From: an uncultured Clostridium sp.
GTDB lineage: Bacteria; Bacillota; Clostridia; TANB77; CAG-508
NCBI GenBank assembly: GCA_964618105.1
Contig: CAZUAJ010000001.1
Span: 24,896 to 88,895, forward strand
Direction: 5' to 3'
Length of the DNA stretch: 64,000 bases
The notes beneath the pieces were generated by a model, which made no database searches, was not told the DNA's origin, and saw nothing but the letters and a program-made list of their open reading frames with translations. Made by a program: the position numbers and the translations under genes. Below, piece by piece: positions 12,619-45,843 of this stretch. Position 1 is the stretch's first letter; every line of letters starts with the position of its first letter.

Positions 12619-13968
<1,350 letters not shown>

Positions 13969-35753: not shown

Positions 35754-36092
35754 CTATTCTCCTCCTAATAATTCTGAGTTTTCGTATACCCATACATAAC
35801 CACCACAGGTATTTCTTTTTCCATTTAAACACATAGATATTCCACTTTGATTTAATTTAGTTGTAATAATAGCTTCTCTTTGGGAATTAAATACTTTTAC
35901 TACTTTGTTGTTTTTTAACATATATATATCATCAATATATTTTCCTTGAAATTCTTTTAATGAAAACTCAATTTCTCTTCTATTTTTGCAATGATTGTAA
36001 ATGTTGGTTAATACCCCTTTTTTAGTTATTCTATATTTCCTTGTATTGTTTAAAATATTCTCCTGTGATTTCATATTCTTTATTCCTTTCAA
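35754..36092 (-). CDS. NUMOD1-like DNA-binding protein (homing-endonuclease accessory type); start uncertain
   Basis: FNSQREAIITTKLNQSGISMCLNGKRNTCGGYVWVY resembles the NUMOD1 motif; overlaps the upstream gene by about 60 nt. Confidence 0.35.
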   Translation of the reverse strand: MKGIKNMKSQENILNNTRKYRITKKGVLTNIYNHCKNRREIEFSLKEFQGKYIDDIYMLKNNKVVKVFNSQREAIITTKLNQSGISMCLNGKRNTCGGYVWVYENSELLGGE

Positions 36093-36435
36093 AGTCTATT
36101 ATTTCTTCGTTAAACTTGTCTTTTAAAGCAAATTTACAAAAATCATAAATTACTATATATTTATTATTTATAATCATATTTTCATATATCTCTTTTCCGT
36201 TTTTATCATGTAGTCCAGTGAATTGTCCTATTGAATTTTTATCTACCTGCCCTTGTATCATTCTATATGGCATATCCCAATCAGGTATATAATTGGGGTC
36301 AGCAAATTGTATATAGTATTTATCTTCTTCTTTTTTTCCTAAACAAACTAGTGGTGCTGGTATTCTTAACAATGTTCCATATATCCACACTTGTTCTGGT
36401 ATCATTTTCCCTCTAAACTTAATTTCTCTATTCAT
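36031..36435 (-). CDS. YopX-like phage protein
   Basis: MNREIKFRGK...IYGTLL N-terminus typical of the YopX family. Confidence 0.4.
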   Translation of the reverse strand: MNREIKFRGKMIPEQVWIYGTLLRIPAPLVCLGKKEEDKYYIQFADPNYIPDWDMPYRMIQGQVDKNSIGQFTGLHDKNGKEIYENMIINNKYIVIYDFCKFALKDKFNEEIIDFERNKEYEITGEYFKQYKEI

Positions 36436-36451
36436 CTTTTCCTCCTACTTT

Positions 36452-36483
36452 TTAAAAGCTAGACACATTTTTATGTCTAGCCT
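36452..36483 (-). terminator. Hairpin GCTAGACA...TGTCTAGC with T run on the minus strand
   Basis: Read directly. Confidence 0.5.
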
Positions 36484-36723
36484 TTGCTGTTCTTTATAGT
36501 TTCTTTTTTTGTTTTACAAAGTTTATATATCATATATGGAAATATAAAACTATATATAATTTTATAACTTATATAATCCACTTCAATTACTTCATTTCCG
36601 CTTCTTTGTGTAAATTCGTAAACGTCCACTTTGATATAACATCAAAAATGTTAAAACTATAAAAAAGTATGTTTGTACCAAAATTTTCAACATTTTTATT
36701 TCCTCTCTAGTAAATAAGTAAAT

Positions 36724-37392
36724 TTATTTACTTACTATCTCCAAATTTTTATAATAATTATTTTTAATTTTTCCATCTTTATGTATTACTCTTTCATTTT
36801 CTGCTACTGGTCTTATAAAATAATGAGCAACTAGTCTTGATATTGTGGCCATTGTTGCCTTTCCATTATTCCATAAATTAACCTGGTAACCGAATACATT
36901 GTTTCTAAGAGTTTTTAATTTTTTAGTTGTTTTGTTTTTTATTCTACCGTAATTACTAATTAAGTAATTGAACTTTCCAATTTGTTTCCATTCTTCGTTC
37001 TGATAATCTTCCTCTTTGAAATAATCAAATTTAAAATTCCATTCTTTATAGTTATATAAAGGAAATTTCATAATTGTTTCGATAATATCTACTTCAAATA
37101 TTTCTAATAATTCTCCAAATATTTTTTTATTATTTGCTTCAACTTTTGGAATATATTTATTTAATATAGCCTGATTTGTCTTTTTTTCAAGTTCTGCCCA
37201 TTCGTCTTCAGATATATTCTTATAAATTCCAAATAATCCGCTTCTTTTTAATTCTTCAAGTATTTCTTCTATATTCTTAGTACTCGTATGAAGATCCTTT
37301 GCCATTTGACTCTTACCTATTATTTCAATATATTTTGCCATATAAATTTTGTCAAACTCAGTTATCATTTGTTTTTTCTTCATATCTACCAC
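36724..37392 (-). CDS. HNH homing endonuclease (HNH_3/NUMOD4-type) with N-terminal HTH
   Basis: YLISNYGRIKN...GYQVNLWNNGK...RLVAHYFI...HKDG..NN motif. Confidence 0.6.
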   Translation of the reverse strand: MVDMKKKQMITEFDKIYMAKYIEIIGKSQMAKDLHTSTKNIEEILEELKRSGLFGIYKNISEDEWAELEKKTNQAILNKYIPKVEANNKKIFGELLEIFEVDIIETIMKFPLYNYKEWNFKFDYFKEEDYQNEEWKQIGKFNYLISNYGRIKNKTTKKLKTLRNNVFGYQVNLWNNGKATMATISRLVAHYFIRPVAENERVIHKDGKIKNNYYKNLEIVSK

Positions 37393-37399
37393 TCTTTTA

Positions 37400-37765
37400 T
37401 TAGATTTCTTCTATTTCAACAATTACTTCGCTTACATCTGCATATATAATTTGATTATCTACATCAACTACATATTTGCTATTATCATTTTTTAATACTT
37501 CTGCTTTTACTAATGCATCTTGAATATATTTTATTGCACTATAAACATTGTCCACGTCTCTTTTTTTATTTTCTTCTATCCATGTAATATGTAATATTAC
37601 AGGTCTTGTTATTTTTAAATCGTGTAGCTGATTTTTTATCTCGTCATAAATTCTTGAATCATGTAGTTGTTTGAATTTTGCTGCAATATGCTTGTTAAAC
37701 TTACATTTATTCAAATATTCATTTAAACTGGGTAATCTATAATGTATTGTAAATCTGTATTTCAT
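37400..37765 (-). CDS. rusA: RusA-family Holliday junction resolvase
   Basis: KKRDVDN motif and size 121 aa. Confidence 0.6.
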   Translation of the reverse strand: MKYRFTIHYRLPSLNEYLNKCKFNKHIAAKFKQLHDSRIYDEIKNQLHDLKITRPVILHITWIEENKKRDVDNVYSAIKYIQDALVKAEVLKNDNSKYVVDVDNQIIYADVSEVIVEIEEI

Positions 37766-37893
37766 TGCTAATTGCCTCCTCTTTTTCTACTTGGTTTTTA
37801 GCTATAAAATATCCTGACACGAATCCAATACAAAACAAAATTATTATTATGGCACAAGTTTTCAAATTTTCTTCAGCTTTATAAATTTGCTTA

Positions 37894-38211
37894 TTATAAT
37901 GTTTCGTCCTTAATATTTCTCTCATTTTTTTGTTTTCCTTTCCATCTCTTTTGTTTAGCTTTTTTTATTCCTCGTCGCTGTTCAACTCCATCTAGTATAT
38001 ATAAATGTTTGCAGTATTTACCTGGTCTACCTTTCATTAAACATTGCTTTTCGCTGATATTCTCGCTCGTTAAATAACATTGCTTTAATGTGCAGTACCC
38101 ATAAGCGAAGCTTACTCTTTGGTTATATAGTGCTAGTAAGTGATTCTTTTTACATCTTCTTATTTTTCCGTCAGCACCTATGTAATATTTTCGATCTGCA
38201 TTTAACTTCAT
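37894..38211 (-). CDS. Hypothetical basic protein
   Basis: ORF. Confidence 0.3.
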   Translation of the reverse strand: MKLNADRKYYIGADGKIRRCKKNHLLALYNQRVSFAYGYCTLKQCYLTSENISEKQCLMKGRPGKYCKHLYILDGVEQRRGIKKAKQKRWKGKQKNERNIKDETL

Positions 38212-38217
38212 TTTTGG

Positions 38218-38592
38218 CTAGTCCGTTCTTGGAATATGTGAATAATTTGCATCTTCCATTTCTTTTTGTTTGAACTCTTGTAAAACTGGATTTAAGCATT
38301 TGTTACATAAGGCCAATGTTACTGCTTCTTTAGTTTTTGTTATATTAGTTGGTAATACTACTGTTCCTCCTGAAGGAATCTTATTAGTATCAGCTCCATT
38401 TAATTTTCTATTTGGTATTTGTATTTCAGCTCCACAGTAATCGCAAATATAATAATAATAGTCAATTGTTTTCTTTATTCTTGTTAAATGATTTGGGCTC
38501 TCTTGAGTCTTATATTTAATATTTTTAGCTGGTTTTGATCTAGTTGCATAACTTTCAATTCTATTTACTATTTTTCTATAATTGTTTTGCAC
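38218..38592 (-). CDS. Hypothetical protein with CxxC pairs
   Basis: ORF. Confidence 0.3.
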   Translation of the reverse strand: MQNNYRKIVNRIESYATRSKPAKNIKYKTQESPNHLTRIKKTIDYYYYICDYCGAEIQIPNRKLNGADTNKIPSGGTVVLPTNITKTKEAVTLALCNKCLNPVLQEFKQKEMEDANYSHIPRTD

Positions 38593-39386
38593 TATTTTCC
38601 CTCCTTCAACTCAGTTTGTAGACATCTGATAAAGTAAGATACTAATCGTTCAACTTCAATGCCTTCGTCTCCACTCACGTATTCTTTGGCCTTTAAAAAT
38701 CTCAAGCATAATTGGTTGTATGTAAGTGAATTTAGATATACTTTATATGGGCTAAAATATAATTCTTTTATTGCCCAATAAAATACTTTTGTTTCTATAA
38801 TTTTGTTTTCTGTAAAGAAGTTAAGAATATCAGTATTCTCAACAAGTATTCCTAATCTTTTTAAATGAATTATTATTATTGATTTGTCTTGCAAATTTAT
38901 TTTATCTTTGCCGTTTTCAAAAAAATCCTGCCCATTATTATTTATATAATTAAAAAATAAGTCTAGTGTAGTGTTATAGTGTAGTGATATAATATACCCT
39001 TTTGCCAAGCCGTCTGGTTGCCTGTTTGGTTGCCCTTCTGCTTGACCAAGTGGTTGCCCGTCTGGTTGTCCTTTTTTTGGTTCATAATCTTCATAAAGTT
39101 TGATAATCTGGTACTTTGGTGCTTCATTCTGGTTTCTACCCTTTTTATATATAATATATTTTTGGGTAATCAACTCATTTCTTGCATTTTGCAATTGTTT
39201 TATAGTTAATCTCAATTTGCTCATAATCGTACTATTGGCCACACTAAATTCCCTCATGAATCTTGTCATACTATCTATGTGTAATATAAACTGGTATATT
39301 GCAATAGCATTAGTAGAGAGATTTTGATAATCTAATGTGGAATAGAATGCTTTTAGTTGTTTAATATAGTCCATTTTTCTCTCCAA
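38592..39386 (-). CDS. Phage replisome organiser / DnaD-like replication initiator
   Basis: N-terminal replisome-organiser-like domain, Gln/Pro-rich linker and DnaD-like C-terminus. Confidence 0.5.
   Translation of the reverse strand: MERKMDYIKQLKAFYSTLDYQNLSTNAIAIYQFILHIDSMTRFMREFSVANSTIMSKLRLTIKQLQNARNELITQKYIIYKKGRNQNEAPKYQIIKLYEDYEPKKGQPDGQPLGQAEGQPNRQPDGLAKGYIISLHYNTTLDLFFNYINNNGQDFFENGKDKINLQDKSIIIIHLKRLGILVENTDILNFFTENKIIETKVFYWAIKELYFSPYKVYLNSLTYNQLCLRFLKAKEYVSGDEGIEVERLVSYFIRCLQTELKEGK
39011..39071. repeat. Iteron-like direct repeats (GGTTGCC x3 plus GGTTGTCC) inside the initiator gene; tagtgtagtg x2 at 38963-38986
   Basis: Read directly; encode the GQP repeats of the linker. Confidence 0.5.
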
Positions 39387-39441
39387 TCCGTGTAAAATTT
39401 CGACAAAAAACCTCGCTGTATGTGAAACATCTATTTAACAT

Positions 39442-39795
39442 CTATTTGTTCGAGCAAATTTTTTCAACACATAAAATTAGAAATTCTTTATTTGTAATAT
39501 GTTGTTTTGCAAAAATATTACAATATTTTCCATTTTGTAAAGAATGTCTCATTGACTTTTCTACCCTACTTCTTGTTGAGTCATAATACTCTGCATTATA
39601 CATATATATCTCTTCCATTTTAGTTTTGACTATTACTGTTGATTTGACCCCTCCGTTTTTATTACATTTATTTACGACATAACTAATGGCTCTTAACCAA
39701 TAGCAAAATCCTAGAGATGAATGTTTAAAATTCATCTCGTTTAATAATTCTGTTATTTTTCTCTCTATTTGCTTATTCTTTGCATTTTCTTCCAT
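39442..39795 (-). CDS. Spo0A C-terminal (DNA-binding) domain-only protein
   Basis: LGFCYWLRAISYVV, STRSRVEKSMRHSLQNG and KEFLILCVEKI align with the Spo0A_C segments IKGYHYLREAILMV, TASRVERAIRHAIEVAW and SEFIAMVADKL. Confidence 0.55.
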   Translation of the reverse strand: MEENAKNKQIERKITELLNEMNFKHSSLGFCYWLRAISYVVNKCNKNGGVKSTVIVKTKMEEIYMYNAEYYDSTRSRVEKSMRHSLQNGKYCNIFAKQHITNKEFLILCVEKICSNK

Positions 39796-39812
39796 TGTAA
39801 AATCCTCCTACT

Positions 39813-40640
39813 CTATTTAGTAATATTAATCATTGGAATATTGTCTCCTAAATTTGTTGTAGGTAGTTGACCATTCCATTTTTCAACTAATTTTTCTTGA
39901 ATTTCTAGTTGTTTTAATTTTAAAGTTTTTTCTGTAATTTCTTTATTTTGTAGAGCCATAACTTCCGCTTCTGCTTTTGCATTTTCTACTTTCTTTTGAT
40001 TATCTACCTGAGCTTTTTCAAGTTCGGCTTTGGCTTTCTCTACGTTTTGTTGAGCTGTTGCTTTTTCTTCAATTGCTTTATTGTATTCTTCTGAAAAGTC
40101 AAAATTCTTAATTGACACTTCTGTTACTTTGATTCCATTTGCTTGTAATTTATTTATTAACATTTCTTTTATAAGTTCTGAAACCTTGTTTCTGTTTGTA
40201 ATAATTTCTTCTGCAGTGAATTGTGAAAAAGATGATTTTACACTTTCTTGAATAGCTGGTGCTATAATAATACTTTCATAATCTTTTCCCACCTGTTGAT
40301 ATAAAGTATTAGCCTTTTCTTTCTCTACTGAATAATTTATTGCTGTATAAATAGCTTTTACAACTTGCATATCTTTTGTAGAACTTTCAAAAGCATTTTC
40401 ATTTTCGTAGATTTGTGTTTTACAGTTTATTTTTACAATTTTCTCTATAAATGGTGTTTTTAGGTTTAGCCCCTCTTGAATAACAGTATCTTGTACTTGT
40501 CCAAATTTTGTTTTCACTCCCACAAAGCCTGTAGGCACTGTTGTTATACTTCCAAATATAATAATTAGCATTATTGCTACTATAAATAAAACAGATATTA
40601 ATATTATTTTTGATTTATCATTCATTTTCTTTTCCTCCAA
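39813..40640 (-). CDS. SPFH/band-7 (prohibitin/HflKC-like) membrane protein
   Basis: N-terminal TM then SPFH core and coiled-coil tail. Confidence 0.7.
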   Translation of the reverse strand: MEEKKMNDKSKIILISVLFIVAIMLIIIFGSITTVPTGFVGVKTKFGQVQDTVIQEGLNLKTPFIEKIVKINCKTQIYENENAFESSTKDMQVVKAIYTAINYSVEKEKANTLYQQVGKDYESIIIAPAIQESVKSSFSQFTAEEIITNRNKVSELIKEMLINKLQANGIKVTEVSIKNFDFSEEYNKAIEEKATAQQNVEKAKAELEKAQVDNQKKVENAKAEAEVMALQNKEITEKTLKLKQLEIQEKLVEKWNGQLPTTNLGDNIPMINITK

Positions 40641-40722
40641 TTTAATTATTATTTAATTGACTTTAAATATATATTATGTTAAACTATATAAAGTAAATGC
40701 ATATTTACTAATAGGTTTAGGG

Positions 40723-41052
40723 TTAGTTTGTAGATTGGTAGTCGTGAACTAACTCTTTTATTTTATTTAGAACTATTTTTTCACTGTCTACTGGACAAGC
40801 TACAGTTCTATCTGCCACATCTTTTAGTAGCTTCTGTAATTTAGTGTTTTCTTTAGTTAAAATAGTGTTATTATGTACATCTACTTTTCTTAAATCTTTT
40901 AACTGTTTATTTTCAAAATTTAAGTCTCGTACTTGTTTAGCTAAATTAACATTTCTTGAGTTTAGATTGTCTATTTCGTTTTTTGAGTATTCTCTGTAAA
41001 ACATTAACACTACCAGAATAATCACTATGACTAAAACTAAAAATATTTCCAT
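40723..41052 (-). CDS. Small membrane-anchored coiled-coil protein
   Basis: N-terminal TM plus heptad region. Confidence 0.35.
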   Translation of the reverse strand: MEIFLVLVIVIILVVLMFYREYSKNEIDNLNSRNVNLAKQVRDLNFENKQLKDLRKVDVHNNTILTKENTKLQKLLKDVADRTVACPVDSEKIVLNKIKELVHDYQSTN

Positions 41053-41070
41053 ATTTTCTTCATCTCCTTT

Positions 41071-41277
41071 CTATCCAAAAATCGTTGTTAGTTTCTTATC
41101 CATTTTATTTAAAAACTTCCAAAAGCTTTTATATAAATTAATGTTAAAAACTCTATAAAAAATAAATTGTATTAACAACATTGATATTATCGATCCAAAT
41201 ATTTCTGCTAGAAGCATCATGCCACATAAGGCAACGTCTAAAAAATAACTAATCATTTGCAATTCTCTCCTTTTCAT
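41071..41277 (-). CDS. Small 2-TM membrane protein
   Basis: 68 aa hydrophobic. Confidence 0.3.
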   Translation of the reverse strand: MKRRELQMISYFLDVALCGMMLLAEIFGSIISMLLIQFIFYRVFNINLYKSFWKFLNKMDKKLTTIFG

Positions 41278-41348
41278 TTATTAATTTTTCTAAAAGTTGA
41301 TTCGTTTTTCTTGTCTCTATAAACAATAAGCTTATAGTTGCACCATTG

Positions 41349-41558
41349 TTAGTTCCGCTTCTTATATAAGCCTTGACACCAAAGTCTAACTGCCTCTTTA
41401 TCGGCAATAAAGTCATCTTTTATTTTTGGAAAATCCGCTTCGTTAAAGTATTTTCTTGTTGTGACAGGACTTTTCCCTAATATTCTTGAAAGCAATTCTG
41501 GTGTTATTGTATCAGGTGCATCTTTCCATTTTAATGTTGGTTTTATTTGTCTGGACAT
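41349..41558 (-). CDS. HTH_17 / excisionase-like small DNA-binding protein
   Basis: ITPELLSRILGKSPVTTRKYF resembles Tn916 Xis-type HTH. Confidence 0.4.
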   Translation of the reverse strand: MSRQIKPTLKWKDAPDTITPELLSRILGKSPVTTRKYFNEADFPKIKDDFIADKEAVRLWCQGLYKKRN

Positions 41559-41639
41559 CTCTTTTCTTCTCTCCTATTCTTTCTTCTCCTTTATTTACCT
41601 TTGAATCAAGTTTGCTACTTTTTATGTGTTAGGTTGCGA

Positions 41640-41837
41640 TTATTTTTGTTTAAATAGATATTCAATGTTTAAATTAGGAAAATACTTTTCTTTTATTGCA
41701 AACATTTCACTTCTATTCCATTCTGTTTTTCCTAGAAATTTATTTCTTAAAGTTTCATATACATACCCTAAATCCCTTGAGATATCTTTTATAGTTATAT
41801 CTATTCTTGCCATCTCTACTTTTAAATTTTCATACAT
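41640..41837 (-). CDS. Cro-like XRE-family repressor (65 aa)
   Basis: Start at MYENLK with RBS AGGAGGTG; HTH; divergent from cI. Confidence 0.6.
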   Translation of the reverse strand: MYENLKVEMARIDITIKDISRDLGYVYETLRNKFLGKTEWNRSEMFAIKEKYFPNLNIEYLFKQK

Positions 41838-41856
41838 TTTAGCACCTCCTATTACA

Positions 41857-41998
41857 TTTTTTTGTATTTTAAATTTTATTTCAATACAGTTTTCTGTATT
41901 TGTATCTCGATAATAATACAACTTTTTGTATTTGTCAATACTTTTTTTACAAGTTTTTGTATTTTTTTATTTACAATACAAAAAAAATTTGTTATACT
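41857..41998. promoter_or_regulatory. Genetic switch region: four or more direct copies of TTTGTATTT(G/T), one inverted copy, and the cI promoter TTTACA-17-TATACT
   Basis: Read directly. Confidence 0.55.
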
Positions 41999-42034
41999 AT
42001 TACTGAAATATTTAATAAAAAAGGAAGTGAAACT

Positions 42035-42370
42035 ATGAATTTAGCTGAAAAAATCAATCTACTTATGATGCAAAATGATATAAAAAATCCTAAAGAATTG
42101 TCAGAAAAAATGAATGAAAAAAAATTAAGAATTCCATATACTACATTACTAACTATTATCAATAATGAAGTTCAAGATATAAAATTAGGTACTGCAAGAA
42201 AAATTTGTACATTTTTTAGGATTACACTCGATGAGCTTTTGGATGACAGTATACCTATATTAGATATAACCAAGCCACTAAACACAGATGGTTTAAGTGA
42301 ACAAGATATTAAAGAATTACAAGAATTGATAGAGATAAAAAAGAAATTAAAGAAAAATGAAAGGAAGTAA
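42035..42370 (+). CDS. cI-like XRE-family repressor (111 aa)
   Basis: HTH_XRE in the first 70 aa; RBS AAGGAAGTG. Confidence 0.6.
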   Translation: MNLAEKINLLMMQNDIKNPKELSEKMNEKKLRIPYTTLLTIINNEVQDIKLGTARKICTFFRITLDELLDDSIPILDITKPLNTDGLSEQDIKELQELIEIKKKLKKNERK

Positions 42371-42378
42371 ATAGTATA

Positions 42379-43227
42379 ATGAAAATTAAAAAGGTAATTA
42401 TTGATTTTGTTTTATGTTTCTTTTTTGGTTATTTAGGAATACATAAATTCTATGAAGGAAATAAAAAACTAGGTACTATATATCTATGTACTTTTGGAAT
42501 ATTTGGAATAGGTTGGCTTGTAGATCTTATTATATTATTTTTAGACATATTGAAATATTTTAATAATACAAATGTTAATAATGTTCACTCTAACGTTCCT
42601 ATTAAAGAGACTATTGATATAAATGATATTGAAATTTCTTTTTATGAACCTACTTATTATGAAAGAAAAAAATCTTTATATTCTAAAACTAAAATTAAAA
42701 AATTTGTAGATGACTATGTAGTTTTCGATTTAGAAACAACAGGTCTCAGTCCTGCTAACAATGAAATAATAGAAATAAGTGCGTTAAAATATAAAAATAA
42801 TACATTGATAGATTCATTTAATGAATTAGTAAAACCAGTTACTCCTATTCCTAGTAGAATTACTAAATTAACTGGAATTACAAATGAAGATGTTGCAAAT
42901 TGTGATACTATCAATAAAGTCCTTCCAGATTTTATTGCATTTATAGAAAACTATACTTTAATAGCTCATAACGGAAGTTTTGATCTTGGTTTTATTGAAA
43001 AATATATAAATGAATTAAATATAGATTATAAGGATAATTCTAATATAGATACATTGTATCTTACAAGAAAGTATTTACCTGAGCTAGATAATCATAAGTT
43101 AGAAACTTTAAAAGAATATTTTAAATTAGACAATGCATCACATAGAGCAACTGCTGACTGCGAAACAACTAATGTTATATATCAATATTGTAAAGAAAAA
43201 AAATTAAATAAAATAAGTAAAAAATAA
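42379..43227 (+). CDS. TM2-domain membrane anchor fused to a DnaQ-like DEDDh 3'-5' exonuclease
   Basis: GYLGIHKFYEG..GIFGIGWLVDLIIL matches the TM2 domain; Exo I VVFDLETTGL, Exo II LIAHNGSFDLGFI, Exo III HRATADCETT. Confidence 0.7.
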   Translation: MKIKKVIIDFVLCFFFGYLGIHKFYEGNKKLGTIYLCTFGIFGIGWLVDLIILFLDILKYFNNTNVNNVHSNVPIKETIDINDIEISFYEPTYYERKKSLYSKTKIKKFVDDYVVFDLETTGLSPANNEIIEISALKYKNNTLIDSFNELVKPVTPIPSRITKLTGITNEDVANCDTINKVLPDFIAFIENYTLIAHNGSFDLGFIEKYINELNIDYKDNSNIDTLYLTRKYLPELDNHKLETLKEYFKLDNASHRATADCETTNVIYQYCKEKKLNKISKK

Positions 43228-43380
43228 AAAGGAAATAAGATGTAGTATAAGCTCGCAACCTAACACATTTTATTTCCTTGCAGCAAACACTAAAAGTGAA
43301 TTGCATTCATATTATATATAAATGTATCTTCATTTTCAAGTGTTTGTTAAAAATATTTTAAAAAATGGAGGTATTTTTTT

Positions 43381-44808
43381 ATGAACAAAAAGGGATTTAG
43401 AGCTACTAACGGCGAAGGTTACGTTGGAACAACAATTCAAAAGATAAAAAAGCAATTTGACAACTCTAAAATGTGTAGTATTTGTATGTCTTGTACTAAT
43501 AGATCTATGTGTAATAATCGTATAGATTGGACCAAATGTGAAAAATGCAAGAATTGTAAAGAAGAATGTCTTAAATATTGTGACCGCTTCTATTGTAGAA
43601 AAATGGTACAAGCTCAAATAACTATTGATGGTAAACAAGTTTCTGTTGCTTCAAAAAGAACTCGAAAAGAAAGTATTGAAGAAAAAAAGCGTAAAGAATC
43701 TGATGTGCTTTGTGGCACCTATGTAAAAAAAGACAATAGGACATTATACCATTTTTGTAAAGAAGTGGAAGCAGAAAAAATCGCAGCTAATAAAATTAAG
43801 CAATCTACACAAAATAGAAATAATAATACCTTTGACAAAATAAAAAATGCCGATTTCTTCAGTAAGAGTATACAAAAAACTACTAAAACTGATATAGATA
43901 ATTTTATTAGTCAATATAAATACCTTTCACAGTCCGAATTAGATAAGATTTCAAATATCATTAAAAGCGGTTTCGAAAGAGCCATGGCAAGTGATGTAAT
44001 AACATACAAACAAAATTTTATGAGAAATTATTGTGTTCCCTGCTCCGAAAAACAAGAGAAAGAAGTTGTTGCCTTTGAGCTAGAAGAATTTATAACTTTA
44101 ATAAAATATGTACTCACAACCAATAAATTGATTAAAAGTAGTAAATGTAATTATGATAGTCGCACAATTAGAAATATTATAATTCTTTCATTTTTGTCAC
44201 TTACTCGAATCGGTGAAATGGGAGCACTTGATATAGATAAGCATATTGATTTACAAAAAAAATATATCAGTATTGAAAGAACTCTTACAGAAGATGTTGC
44301 AGGAAAAGTTATAATGGGAACAACAACAAAAACTGGTAATCGCCAGAAAAAGGTTGAAAAAAGAATAATAAACTTCAACATCTTTTCTGAAGAACTTTTT
44401 TTAATGATAATTAGAGATCAAATCGAAAACTCAAGAAATAATATCAATAATATCGAAAATTTGCTTTTCTGTGACAAAAATGGGAACTATATAGTTCCTT
44501 CAGCAATTACTAATATATTTAAACGAATATGTCGTGATGCAGGTGTAAAAGTTAACTTAACAACAGGGTGCTTCATACACATGACACGACATACTGCTAT
44601 ATCTTTTATGATCTCATTAGGGTATGACCTGGTATTTATAACATCTTTTTCTGGTCACAGCAGTATAAAAGAAATTGAACGAACTTATGGCCATATTTTA
44701 AATGATTATAGAAAAAAGAAATTGGAAAATCCGAATTTTCATTACGAAAAAGAAGATATTATTACAAAAGAAATTATAAATTTAGCCCAAAAATGTTATT
44801 TACATTAA
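43381..44808 (+). CDS. int: Tyrosine integrase with long N-terminal Cys-rich region
   Basis: C-terminal RHTAISFMISLGYD...GHSSIKEIERTYGHIL (R..H..R..Y); adjacent to tRNA attL. Confidence 0.8.
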   Translation: MNKKGFRATNGEGYVGTTIQKIKKQFDNSKMCSICMSCTNRSMCNNRIDWTKCEKCKNCKEECLKYCDRFYCRKMVQAQITIDGKQVSVASKRTRKESIEEKKRKESDVLCGTYVKKDNRTLYHFCKEVEAEKIAANKIKQSTQNRNNNTFDKIKNADFFSKSIQKTTKTDIDNFISQYKYLSQSELDKISNIIKSGFERAMASDVITYKQNFMRNYCVPCSEKQEKEVVAFELEEFITLIKYVLTTNKLIKSSKCNYDSRTIRNIIILSFLSLTRIGEMGALDIDKHIDLQKKYISIERTLTEDVAGKVIMGTTTKTGNRQKKVEKRIINFNIFSEELFLMIIRDQIENSRNNINNIENLLFCDKNGNYIVPSAITNIFKRICRDAGVKVNLTTGCFIHMTRHTAISFMISLGYDLVFITSFSGHSSIKEIERTYGHILNDYRKKKLENPNFHYEKEDIITKEIINLAQKCYLH

Positions 44809-44865
44809 AAAAAGTCGTTATAAGTGTTGGCATTACTGCCTTTTATCATTTATAACGACTTTTTA
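44809..44865 (+). terminator. Integrase terminator, 14-bp perfect stem
   Basis: AAAAGTCGTTATAA...TTATAACGACTTTT. Confidence 0.5.
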
Positions 44866-44910
44866 ATGTAATTGTATTTTCTTTTTTAATGTAATTTTAA
44901 TGTAAATTTT
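44861..44910. repeat. Three direct copies of TTTAATGTAA(T), putative Int arm-type sites
   Basis: Related copies TTTTAATGTGA x2 at 14090-14111. Confidence 0.4.
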
Positions 44911-45051: not shown

Positions 45052-45127
45052 TGGAGCTTCCAGCCGGAATCGAACCGGCGACCTCAGCCTTACCATGGCT
45101 GCGCTCTACCTACTGAGCTATAGAAGC
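45052..45127 (-). tRNA. tRNA-Thr (anticodon GGT) with encoded CCA
   Basis: Manual cloverleaf: GCTTCTA/TGGAAGC acceptor, D-arm GCTC-AGTAGGTA-GAGC, anticodon loop ATGGTAA, T-arm GCCGG-TTCGATT-CCGGC. Confidence 0.85.
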
Positions 45128-45180: not shown

Positions 45181-45843
45181 TTAAAATTGTTCGTTTGGTA
45201 TTTCTTTAATAGCTTTTTTACGAATTCTTTGAATTGCATTGTCAACAGATTTAATAGGTGTATTTAATTTTTCGGCAATTTTCATATAACTTTCTCCCTG
45301 CATATAAAAATTCAGTACTTGTTTTTCAAAATTACTTAAAGATTTATTAATAGTATTTTCAATTATATGATAATATTCCTTTTGAGTAATAGTTTCCAAA
45401 GGATCTTCTATTAGATTTGTATTAAGAATTTCTATTAAGTCTGCATCATTTTGATTATTTATATCTCTATTGTCATAAGCATTTATATTAAGAGATAAAT
45501 ATGAGTTAAGTGGCATATTTTTTTGTCTATTTGAAGTTTTAATAGCAGTAATTAATTGTCTTTCAATACACATATTTGCAAAATTTTTAAAAGAACTTTG
45601 CCTATCTACTTGGTAACTTTTTATTGCTTTAAATAATCCAATTAGTCCTTCTTGTACAATATCTTCTCTTTCTGCACCTATTATATAGTATTTACTAACT
45701 TTCATATTTACTAAACTTTTGTAACGATTAATAAGATGTTCTAAAGCATATTTATTTCCAGACTTAATAATTTCTATTAAGTCTTCATCACTAATTTCTT
45801 CAAAATTAGTATCAAATGAATAATATGTATTTGCATTGTTCAT
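45181..45843 (-). CDS. sigH: Sporulation sigma factor SigH
   Basis: REDIVQEGLIGLFKAIKSY...SFKNFANMCIERQLITAIKTSNRQKNMPLNSYLSLN closely parallels Bacillus/Clostridium SigH. Confidence 0.8.
   Translation of the reverse strand: MNNANTYYSFDTNFEEISDEDLIEIIKSGNKYALEHLINRYKSLVNMKVSKYYIIGAEREDIVQEGLIGLFKAIKSYQVDRQSSFKNFANMCIERQLITAIKTSNRQKNMPLNSYLSLNINAYDNRDINNQNDADLIEILNTNLIEDPLETITQKEYYHIIENTINKSLSNFEKQVLNFYMQGESYMKIAEKLNTPIKSVDNAIQRIRKKAIKEIPNEQF

Follow-up and report, generated by a model that had tools for sequence, protein, structure and literature searches.

Membrane proteins with the architecture of eukaryotic prohibitins and of bacterial HflK and HflC assemble into membrane-anchored rings or cages. 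PHB1/2 and HflK/C enclose AAA proteases of the FtsH type, and both prohibitin and HflK/C are oriented away from the cytoplasm or matrix. Here we analysed a prohibitin-family SPFH/Band_7 gene of a prophage, which lies in a stretch of 64,000 nucleotides (nt) from an uncultured Clostridium sp. (contig CAZUAJ010000001.1; this whole stretch is called the window), together with the two genes just upstream of it, which encode small hydrophobic or membrane proteins of 61 and 109 amino acids (aa) and are named p61 and p109. An earlier note on this DNA proposed that the three genes form an HflKC-like module that could modulate a host membrane protease or act in exclusion. Our data place the SPFH protein of the window, as an ordinary member, in a widespread and already annotated phage family; its gene lies in an early operon and shows no linkage to p61 or p109. 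As to its function, we tentatively favour, with a probability of roughly 0.4, a stand-alone, early, cage-forming scaffold that would act on a host membrane protein, with FtsH as the leading candidate.

Among described systems, the protein is most like PHB1/PHB2, the SPFH cage of the mitochondrial inner membrane. In searches of PDB sequences, PHB2 (4.7e-23) and PHB1 (4e-20) were the best matches, at 21-25% identity over residues 33-251, and weaker matches were obtained for QmcA (2e-7), HflC (7e-7) and stomatin (7e-5). The Pfam Band_7 profile (PF01145) aligned with residues 34-208 over profile positions 2-173 of 176, with an E value of 7.4e-32 and 111.2 bits against a gathering cut-off of 23.6, and PHROG_200 aligned residues 7-274 with profile positions 76-360 of 379 (5.3e-52). 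The AlphaFold2 (AF2) model, a monomer built from an alignment of 26 sequences with a mean predicted local distance difference test (pLDDT) score of 71, comprises a transmembrane (TM) helix at residues 3-25, an alpha/beta SPFH domain at 33-177, one uninterrupted helix at 179-252 and a low-confidence tail. This order of N-terminal anchor, SPFH domain and one long helix is shared with PHB1/PHB2, and Foldseek searches with the model returned the human PHB1/2 cages first (about 1e-13), then FtsH-HflK/C complexes (about 1e-9), erlin and stomatin, with a probability of 1.00 for the PHB, HflK/C, erlin and stomatin structures. The window differs from PHB1/PHB2 in having one gene rather than a pair, in its bacterial-virus context and in a family-specific conserved C-terminal tail, KWNGQLPTTxLGDNIP, of which the KWNGxLP motif is among the 63 invariant columns of family alignment A1.

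HflK/HflC-FtsH of Escherichia coli, known as the lambda Hfl system, was the second-best fold match and has the same SPFH fold with an N-terminal TM helix, a likeness that would supply the FtsH-modulation mechanism proposed in the earlier note. However, scores of the protein with the NCBIfam equivalog models for HflK (TIGR01933, 45.8 against 159.4 bits, 5e-12) and HflC (TIGR01932, 36.4 against 134.4 bits) were below the cut-offs. The locus also has a single SPFH gene, encoded by a phage and not by the host, with p109 and a Spo0A_C gene as neighbours instead of an hflK-hflC pair, and relatives of the protein occur in many large Staphylococcus phages as well. On these scores the protein is nearer to prohibitins than to HflK/HflC; the description 'prohibitin/HflKC-type' was right about a genuine, prohibitin-like SPFH protein and imprecise in its HflKC part.

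All three open reading frames (ORFs) of the proposed module are real and lie on the minus strand at the positions given before, and for 109 aa the given length was also correct. The SPFH protein, given as 275 aa, is 270 aa long and the '68-aa' protein is 61 aa long, as judged from ribosome-binding sites, public gene calls and homologue lengths. For SPFH, the start is ATG 40625, the upstream TTG 40640 falls within the GGAGG ribosome-binding site, and the 270-aa start is backed by an exact public gene call (P0241) and by homologue lengths of 265-279 aa. Compared with their homologues, all three genes are under purifying selection (ratios of nonsynonymous to synonymous substitution, dN/dS, of 0.06-0.27).

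The N-terminal flank of the SPFH TM helix is short and K-rich, and homologues with long N-terminal extensions have 7-11 K/R there. This charge distribution would favour a topology with the N-terminus inside and the C-terminus outside, like that of prohibitin and HflK/C. Such a probable extracytoplasmic orientation and early expression would also fit a different role, superinfection exclusion or membrane protection during lytic growth, in which an early, outward SPFH lattice blocks DNA entry of a secondary phage or prevents premature depolarisation or lysis, like early exclusion proteins of other phages. The PHROG_200 label 'lipoprotein' and the annotation of some GenBank relatives as lipoproteins suggest that the family may be exported. 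The N-terminus of the window protein, MNDKSKIILISVLFIVAIMLIIIFGSITTVPTG, contains no Cys in the first 30 residues, that is, no lipobox cysteine, and therefore this label does not apply to it. In a Vi01-like phage the SPFH gene adjoins an annotated superinfection exclusion gene, and the occurrence of the family both in large Staphylococcus phages, including one Kayvirus, and in temperate phages is consistent with a general role in the infection cycle. However, neither SPFH nor p61 nor p109 matched any defence or exclusion model of PADLOC-DB v2 at E<=0.01, and the SPFH gene is not beside the repressor, the usual slot of prophage exclusion genes, which is taken here by a TM2-DEDDh exonuclease gene. 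Moreover, a full-text literature search returned genome-annotation mentions of phage SPFH proteins only, with no functional study and no published exclusion phenotype for any of them. We regard an exclusion or protection role as unlikely, and the earlier suggestion of a defence or exclusion island finds no support here, with the gene packed in the lytic early operon and not in the lysogen-expressed slot.

Phage prohibitin-like proteins make up a large family, which includes PHROG_200 and has many members on gut viral contigs. A word-indexed search with the window protein gave 1963 proteins at E<=1e-10. Relatives were present in 422 of 50,697 GenBank phage records, mostly labelled 'prohibitin family protein' or 'membrane protein', and these records included 226 from Staphylococcus and 79 from Streptomyces phages; the Staphylococcus phage examples listed are large (127-156 kilobases, kb) and one is classified as Kayvirus. 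Kayviruses are virulent phages and have no lysogeny decision. Because Staphylococcus phages, among them a Kayvirus, account for over half of these 422 records, it is unlikely that the family as a whole serves the lysis-lysogeny choice alone, and the connection to this choice that was drawn earlier from lambda is weakened accordingly. IMG/VR contributed 63 contigs with SPFH relatives. From GTDB representative genomes 80 SPFH loci were kept (93 confirmed), nearly all from metagenome-assembled genomes (MAGs) or uncultured isolates, mostly of gut Clostridia and Bacilli.

When neighbour genes of the 93 SPFH loci were clustered and the recurrent clusters annotated, two regimes appeared, separable by the length of neighbour genes and by hallmark counts. 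Loci with SPFH proteins at least 50% identical to that of the window are surrounded by small co-directional phage genes, with an Erf-like annealing protein, NinB/Orf and a Cys-rich phrog_7566 protein upstream, and DnaD-like or other replication-initiation proteins, a DnaG-type primase and a DnaB-type helicase downstream. Most loci at 45% identity or less show conserved chromosomal synteny, and their flanks resemble gpmA, aspS/asnS and mnmA in our reading of the cluster sequences. In a neighbour-joining tree, the window protein and all sequences in phage context formed one clade, sister to the chromosomal group. On each inspected contig with a close homologue, the gene belongs to the early region of a phage and comes after a repressor/cro pair, and in other phages the SPFH gene follows the preceding early gene by 2-35 nt.

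Gut Bacilli and Mollicutes-like MAGs have chromosomal orthologues at 38-45% identity, which could mean that a host housekeeping prohibitin-like gene was recently captured and is carried as a passenger, without a phage-specific role. Against such a recent capture, the clade made up by the phage copies is large, deep and separate, with identities of 50-98% inside it, purifying selection acts on these copies, and their characteristic early-operon position is kept across many unrelated immunity regions. A passenger gene is thus a very improbable explanation.

The members from gut Firmicutes stand in early operons between recombination and replication genes. This position would be explained if SPFH were a membrane platform for phage replication or recombination, with an SPFH microdomain recruiting replisome or recombination proteins. 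Among 64 distinct SPFH variants at least 50% identical to the window gene, 19 have a replication initiator no more than 1 kb downstream, 15 have Erf, NinB or other genes of the recombination block no more than 2.5 kb upstream, and 13 have the phrog_7566 gene immediately upstream. In Fusobacterium phage phiFN37 just two small genes lie between the primase/helicase and the SPFH gene that follows it, in Faecalibacterium phage FP_Toutatis the SPFH gene stands among early genes some 4 kb ahead of the replication initiator, and in the window only the Spo0A_C gene separates it from the DnaD-like initiator. However, the topology of PHB and HflK/C would keep the SPFH domain apart from DNA enzymes, and gene order in early regions mirrors timing as much as function. 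Moreover, no recurrent gene for a physical partner was found around the phage SPFH genes. We consider a replication platform quite unlikely.

The phrog_7566 gene is the commonest one immediately upstream of phage-clade SPFH genes, and encodes a Cys-rich protein of about 95-150 aa with no Pfam domain. Its gap to SPFH is 13-110 nt and it often stands behind a NinB/Orf gene; it was seen at loci L009, L016, L018-L020, L022, L083, L109-L113, L120-L131, L138 and L143, and the window lacks it. Pfam searches on the commonest upstream neighbour families (c3, c7 and c19) gave no assignable domain.

The distribution of p61 and p109 was followed with tblastn, in which these two proteins and the Spo0A_C protein served as queries against sets of 93, 104 and finally 169 loci that bear SPFH or are related. 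The three genes p61, p109 and SPFH are adjacent and co-directional in the window and their order is kept in about ten related contigs, as would be expected if they encoded a co-functioning module, an HflKC-like complex with accessory subunits. However, p61 and p109 adjoin SPFH in just 4 of the 64 variants, all from one lineage with SPFH identity of at least 97%. Around SPFH homologues at 86%, 70% and 57-59% identity the neighbouring genes are all different ones, with both p61 and p109 missing already at 86%, and p109 homologues occur a few genes past cro in early operons without any SPFH gene. Divergence within the lineage is also discordant. Between the window and its sister phages, identity is 97% for SPFH and 98-99% for the DnaD-like protein, against 73-82% for p61, 74-78% for p109 and 69-72% for the Spo0A_C protein. 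Synonymous divergence (dS) from the sister locus L099 is 0.21 for SPFH, 0.75 for p109 and 2.5 for p61, and in a 100-nt identity profile the break falls inside p109, at about 40850-40950. In some phages an extra gene of 55 aa intervenes between p61 and p109. The three-gene module was rejected on co-occurrence in a single lineage, discordant divergence and the presence of p109 and SPFH each without the other, and the earlier note itself had counted a module that is not conserved as a unit among the refuting outcomes.

Some SPFH proteins do use a small membrane partner, and the QmcA-YbbJ complex of SPFH and NfeD proteins was among the structure matches. In SPFH-NfeD operons (QmcA-YbbJ, stomatin-NfeD) a small membrane protein is encoded beside SPFH, as in the window, and QmcA is a weak sequence and fold match of the window protein; they differ from the window in that neither p61 nor p109 matches NfeD and that the pairing in the window is not conserved. 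A general pairing of SPFH with small TM proteins was likewise rejected, because a hydrophobicity screen found TM-containing ORFs within two genes on either side of phage SPFH in 11 of 123 cases (8.9%), compared with 41 of 526 (7.8%) in the background, which is no enrichment. From the distribution, the identity profile, the dS values and the data on TM neighbours, the juxtaposition of p61, p109 and SPFH is an accident of phage mosaicism and not a functional unit, and we give the module hardly any weight.

A second comparison comes from phages themselves. The SPFH proteins MbpS of Kayvirus, gp21 of FP_Toutatis and those of the Fusobacterium phages Fnu1 and phiFN37 are 27-39% identical to the window protein over 88-99% of the length, and in FP_Toutatis and phiFN37 the gene has a similar early or DNA-metabolism position. 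Kayvirus MbpS is encoded beside a TM protein of 102 aa, MbpV, in the lysis region, and was speculated to aid secretion of Tgl (PMC7150955), the sole discussion of a phage SPFH role that the literature search gave. Similar to the window, Kayvirus has a helical protein of about 100 aa with an N-terminal TM segment just upstream of SPFH, a resemblance that would also suit a module. In contrast to the window, the Kayvirus pair stands in the lysis region and MbpV is translationally coupled to SPFH, and homology of p109 and MbpV, which share their architecture, was rejected, as pairwise BLASTP gave an E value of 0.086.

Since phage SPFH travels without fixed partners and forms its own phage clade, the protein should be considered alone, against a host client such as FtsH. 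According to the scaffold model, SPFH would be made early in lytic development from the cro-side operon, and its single N-terminal TM helix would hold it in the membrane, most likely with the N-terminus inside and the SPFH domain at the outer face. The SPFH domain and the 70-residue helix would then form a ring or cage oligomer and so enclose a patch of the cytoplasmic membrane of the host. Because PHB1/2 and HflK/C both corral AAA proteases of the FtsH type, the likeliest client would be FtsH or a different membrane protein of the host, and the scaffold would change how this client reaches its substrates at the time of recombination and replication of phage DNA; from homology to these systems, modulation of FtsH is a reasonable supposition. 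In this scheme SPFH would work without p61 and p109, which would be independent mosaic early genes that merely abut it.

Several observations weigh against the scaffold model. In the AF2 monomer, pLDDT is below 50 at residues 27-63 and 254-270. The C-terminal flank of the TM helix also has 2-3 K/R, and the charge bias is not decisive for topology. Scores with the equivalog models for HflK and HflC fall far short of the cut-offs, and the link to FtsH, or to any client, would derive from homology only. Moreover, the recurrent neighbourhood of replication and recombination genes might instead mean that the protein acts in the cytoplasm in connection with replication, and the location of the Kayvirus gene in the lysis region may indicate that different phage clades use the fold differently. 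In its furthest-reaching form, the model would make the phage prohibitin clade a viral counterpart of HflK/C, whose early cage captures host FtsH and re-tunes the turnover of regulatory and membrane proteins and which, together with the adjacent receiver-less Spo0A protein, steers sporulation and biases lysis-lysogeny in gut Clostridia; this extension is improbable on present data.

Table 1. Coordinates, strand and basis of assignment of features around the SPFH gene (window positions)
Feature	Position	Strand	Basis or remarks
DnaD-like replication initiator/helicase loader	38592..39386	minus	start of replication block; PHROG_19658 replication initiation 7.7e-11; PHROG_186 DnaD-like loader 4.7e-9
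Receiver-less Spo0A C-terminal DNA-binding domain protein, 117 aa	39442..39795	minus	Pfam Spo0A_C PF08769, 1.5e-7, 31.8 bits against a cut-off of 25
Prohibitin-family SPFH/Band_7 protein, 270 aa	39813..40625	minus	Band_7, PHROG_200, PHB1/2 similarity, AF2 model, alignment A1
AT-rich spacer between p109 and SPFH, 97 nt	40626..40722	minus	about 96% identical in sister phages; travels with SPFH block
p109, bitopic membrane protein, 109 aa	40723..41052	minus	N-terminal TM and long helix; AF2 model
p61, hydrophobic with basic C-terminal tail, 61 aa	41071..41256	minus	ATG 41256 from ribosome-binding site; exact public gene call P0259
Early protein, 69 aa	41349..41558	minus	97-100% conserved in L008 and L098, 50% in L016
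cro-like small regulator, 65 aa	41640..41837	minus	ATG 41837 behind AGGAGG; longer ORF matches PHROG_4583 'transcriptional repressor', 2.9e-5
PR-like early promoter candidate	41910..41938	minus	TTGACA-17-TATTAT, 11/12 consensus matches; best-scoring site in 38400-42500; upstream of cro-like gene
Tyrosine integrase	43381-44808	plus	profile searches
tRNA-Thr(GGT)	45052-45127	minus	sole Rfam/ARAGORN match in window; abuts integrase end of prophage

The prophage that carries these genes is a complete siphovirus-type element in DNA of about 25-32% G+C. Its minus strand encodes the terminase large subunit, portal, head protease, major head protein, tape measure and tail proteins, and its plus strand carries, besides the integrase, a CI-like helix-turn-helix repressor and the TM2-DEDDh exonuclease. 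This confirms the early-lytic, phage-borne setting of the SPFH gene that had been described before and shows the prophage to be intact. The tRNA-Thr(GGT) gene, which follows immediately on the end of the integrase gene, probably serves as the attachment site. Megablast of 36000-44900 against GenBank found no near-identical phage, and an IMG/VR viral contig of 37.8 kb has the same early genes, with an SPFH identity of 98%.

The genes from the cro-like gene through the DnaD-like initiator are all co-directional, and a consensus scan of the coding strand from 42500 to 38400 found no terminator-like site. Together with the PR-like promoter-like site upstream and the lack of a significant fold in the 97-nt spacer (z = 0.91), this makes co-transcription of SPFH with the cro-like gene plausible. 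The spacer also has no promoter or terminator consensus on the coding strand, and an Rfam scan of the whole window gave no RNA family besides tRNA-Thr. In sister phages the main difference in the spacer is one 11-nt indel, and a small palindrome, GTAAAT-ATGC-ATTTAC, lies inside it; its conservation may simply reflect recent ancestry shared with the SPFH block. The cro-like gene had no Pfam match. For the 69-aa gene, no match was found in Pfam even at E<=10, and none in PHROG or NCBIfam, so that its earlier designation as HTH_17 could not be confirmed.

The p61 family is tiny, with 11 clusters in a search of 5.8 billion proteins, and is restricted to the window phage lineage (dN/dS 0.08-0.22). 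The earlier description of the protein as '2-TM' was correct in its hydrophobic character; what we see is one continuous hydrophobic stretch, residues 1-41, interrupted by D7 and E18, which may correspond to one long TM helix or to two short ones. Neither p61 nor p109 had a Pfam match above threshold, and NfeD was not matched even at E<=10.

In the AF2 model of p109 (pLDDT 78), a helix at residues 2-84 consists of the TM segment and then a charged part, and a second helix follows at 88-108, in agreement with the TM segment and long helix read from the sequence before. The protein has 172 close homologue clusters of 108-112 aa, with 87% conservation in the soluble part and a variable TM segment. 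A profile search of 1.84 billion representatives gave 53 clusters, all of small anonymous proteins, and many of these are 85-91 aa long and align from about position 19-26 onward, that is, past the TM stretch. Since many homologues align only after this stretch, p109 is a membrane-tethered version of a small helical phage early protein. The residues that flank the TM segment, ME- before and -YREYSK after, suggest that the C-terminal domain is cytoplasmic. Assignments of p109 as EzrA or as an Rz-like spanin were rejected, because all matches were sub-threshold and reflect the architecture of TM segment and coiled coil; the label 'cell division protein', from one source, was set aside as it reflects the architecture only. 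Its best match among PDB sequences was an unrelated membrane protein (E 0.013), and searches of GenBank phages gave no match.

The Spo0A_C gene starts 17 nt downstream of SPFH, and its NCBIfam spore_0_A match is partial and below the cut-off. Truncated spo0A homologues in gut phages have already been described (bioRxiv 10.1101/2023.01.19.524802). Because identity of the allele drops to 69-72% in phages that match the window at 97-99% in the SPFH and DnaD-like genes on either side, this gene is locally swapped or fast-evolving.

On the plus strand, 42379-43227 encodes a fusion of 282 aa that joins a TM2 domain (PF05154, 1.2e-15) to a DEDDh/RNase_T exonuclease (PF00929, 1.6e-33). This gene stands between the CI-like repressor and the integrase on the same strand, which is a lysogen-expressed slot, and its product matches the PADLOC cas-associated DEDDh model (1.2e-39) and the defence candidates PDC-S48 (5e-23). 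In sister prophages the slot is filled otherwise, by a coiled-coil protein, ImmA/M78, or DUF3800 with a Zn-ribbon protein, and it looks like a variable moron or defence position. On the host side of tRNA-Thr, a minus-strand ORF of 220 aa (45181-45843) resembles a SigH-type sigma factor in our reading of its sequence. Near the far end of the prophage, the minus strand encodes at 12875-13612 a serine recombinase/invertase-like protein of 245 aa (PHROG_95 integrase, 1.2e-60; DNA invertase, 5.6e-25), in addition to the tyrosine integrase.

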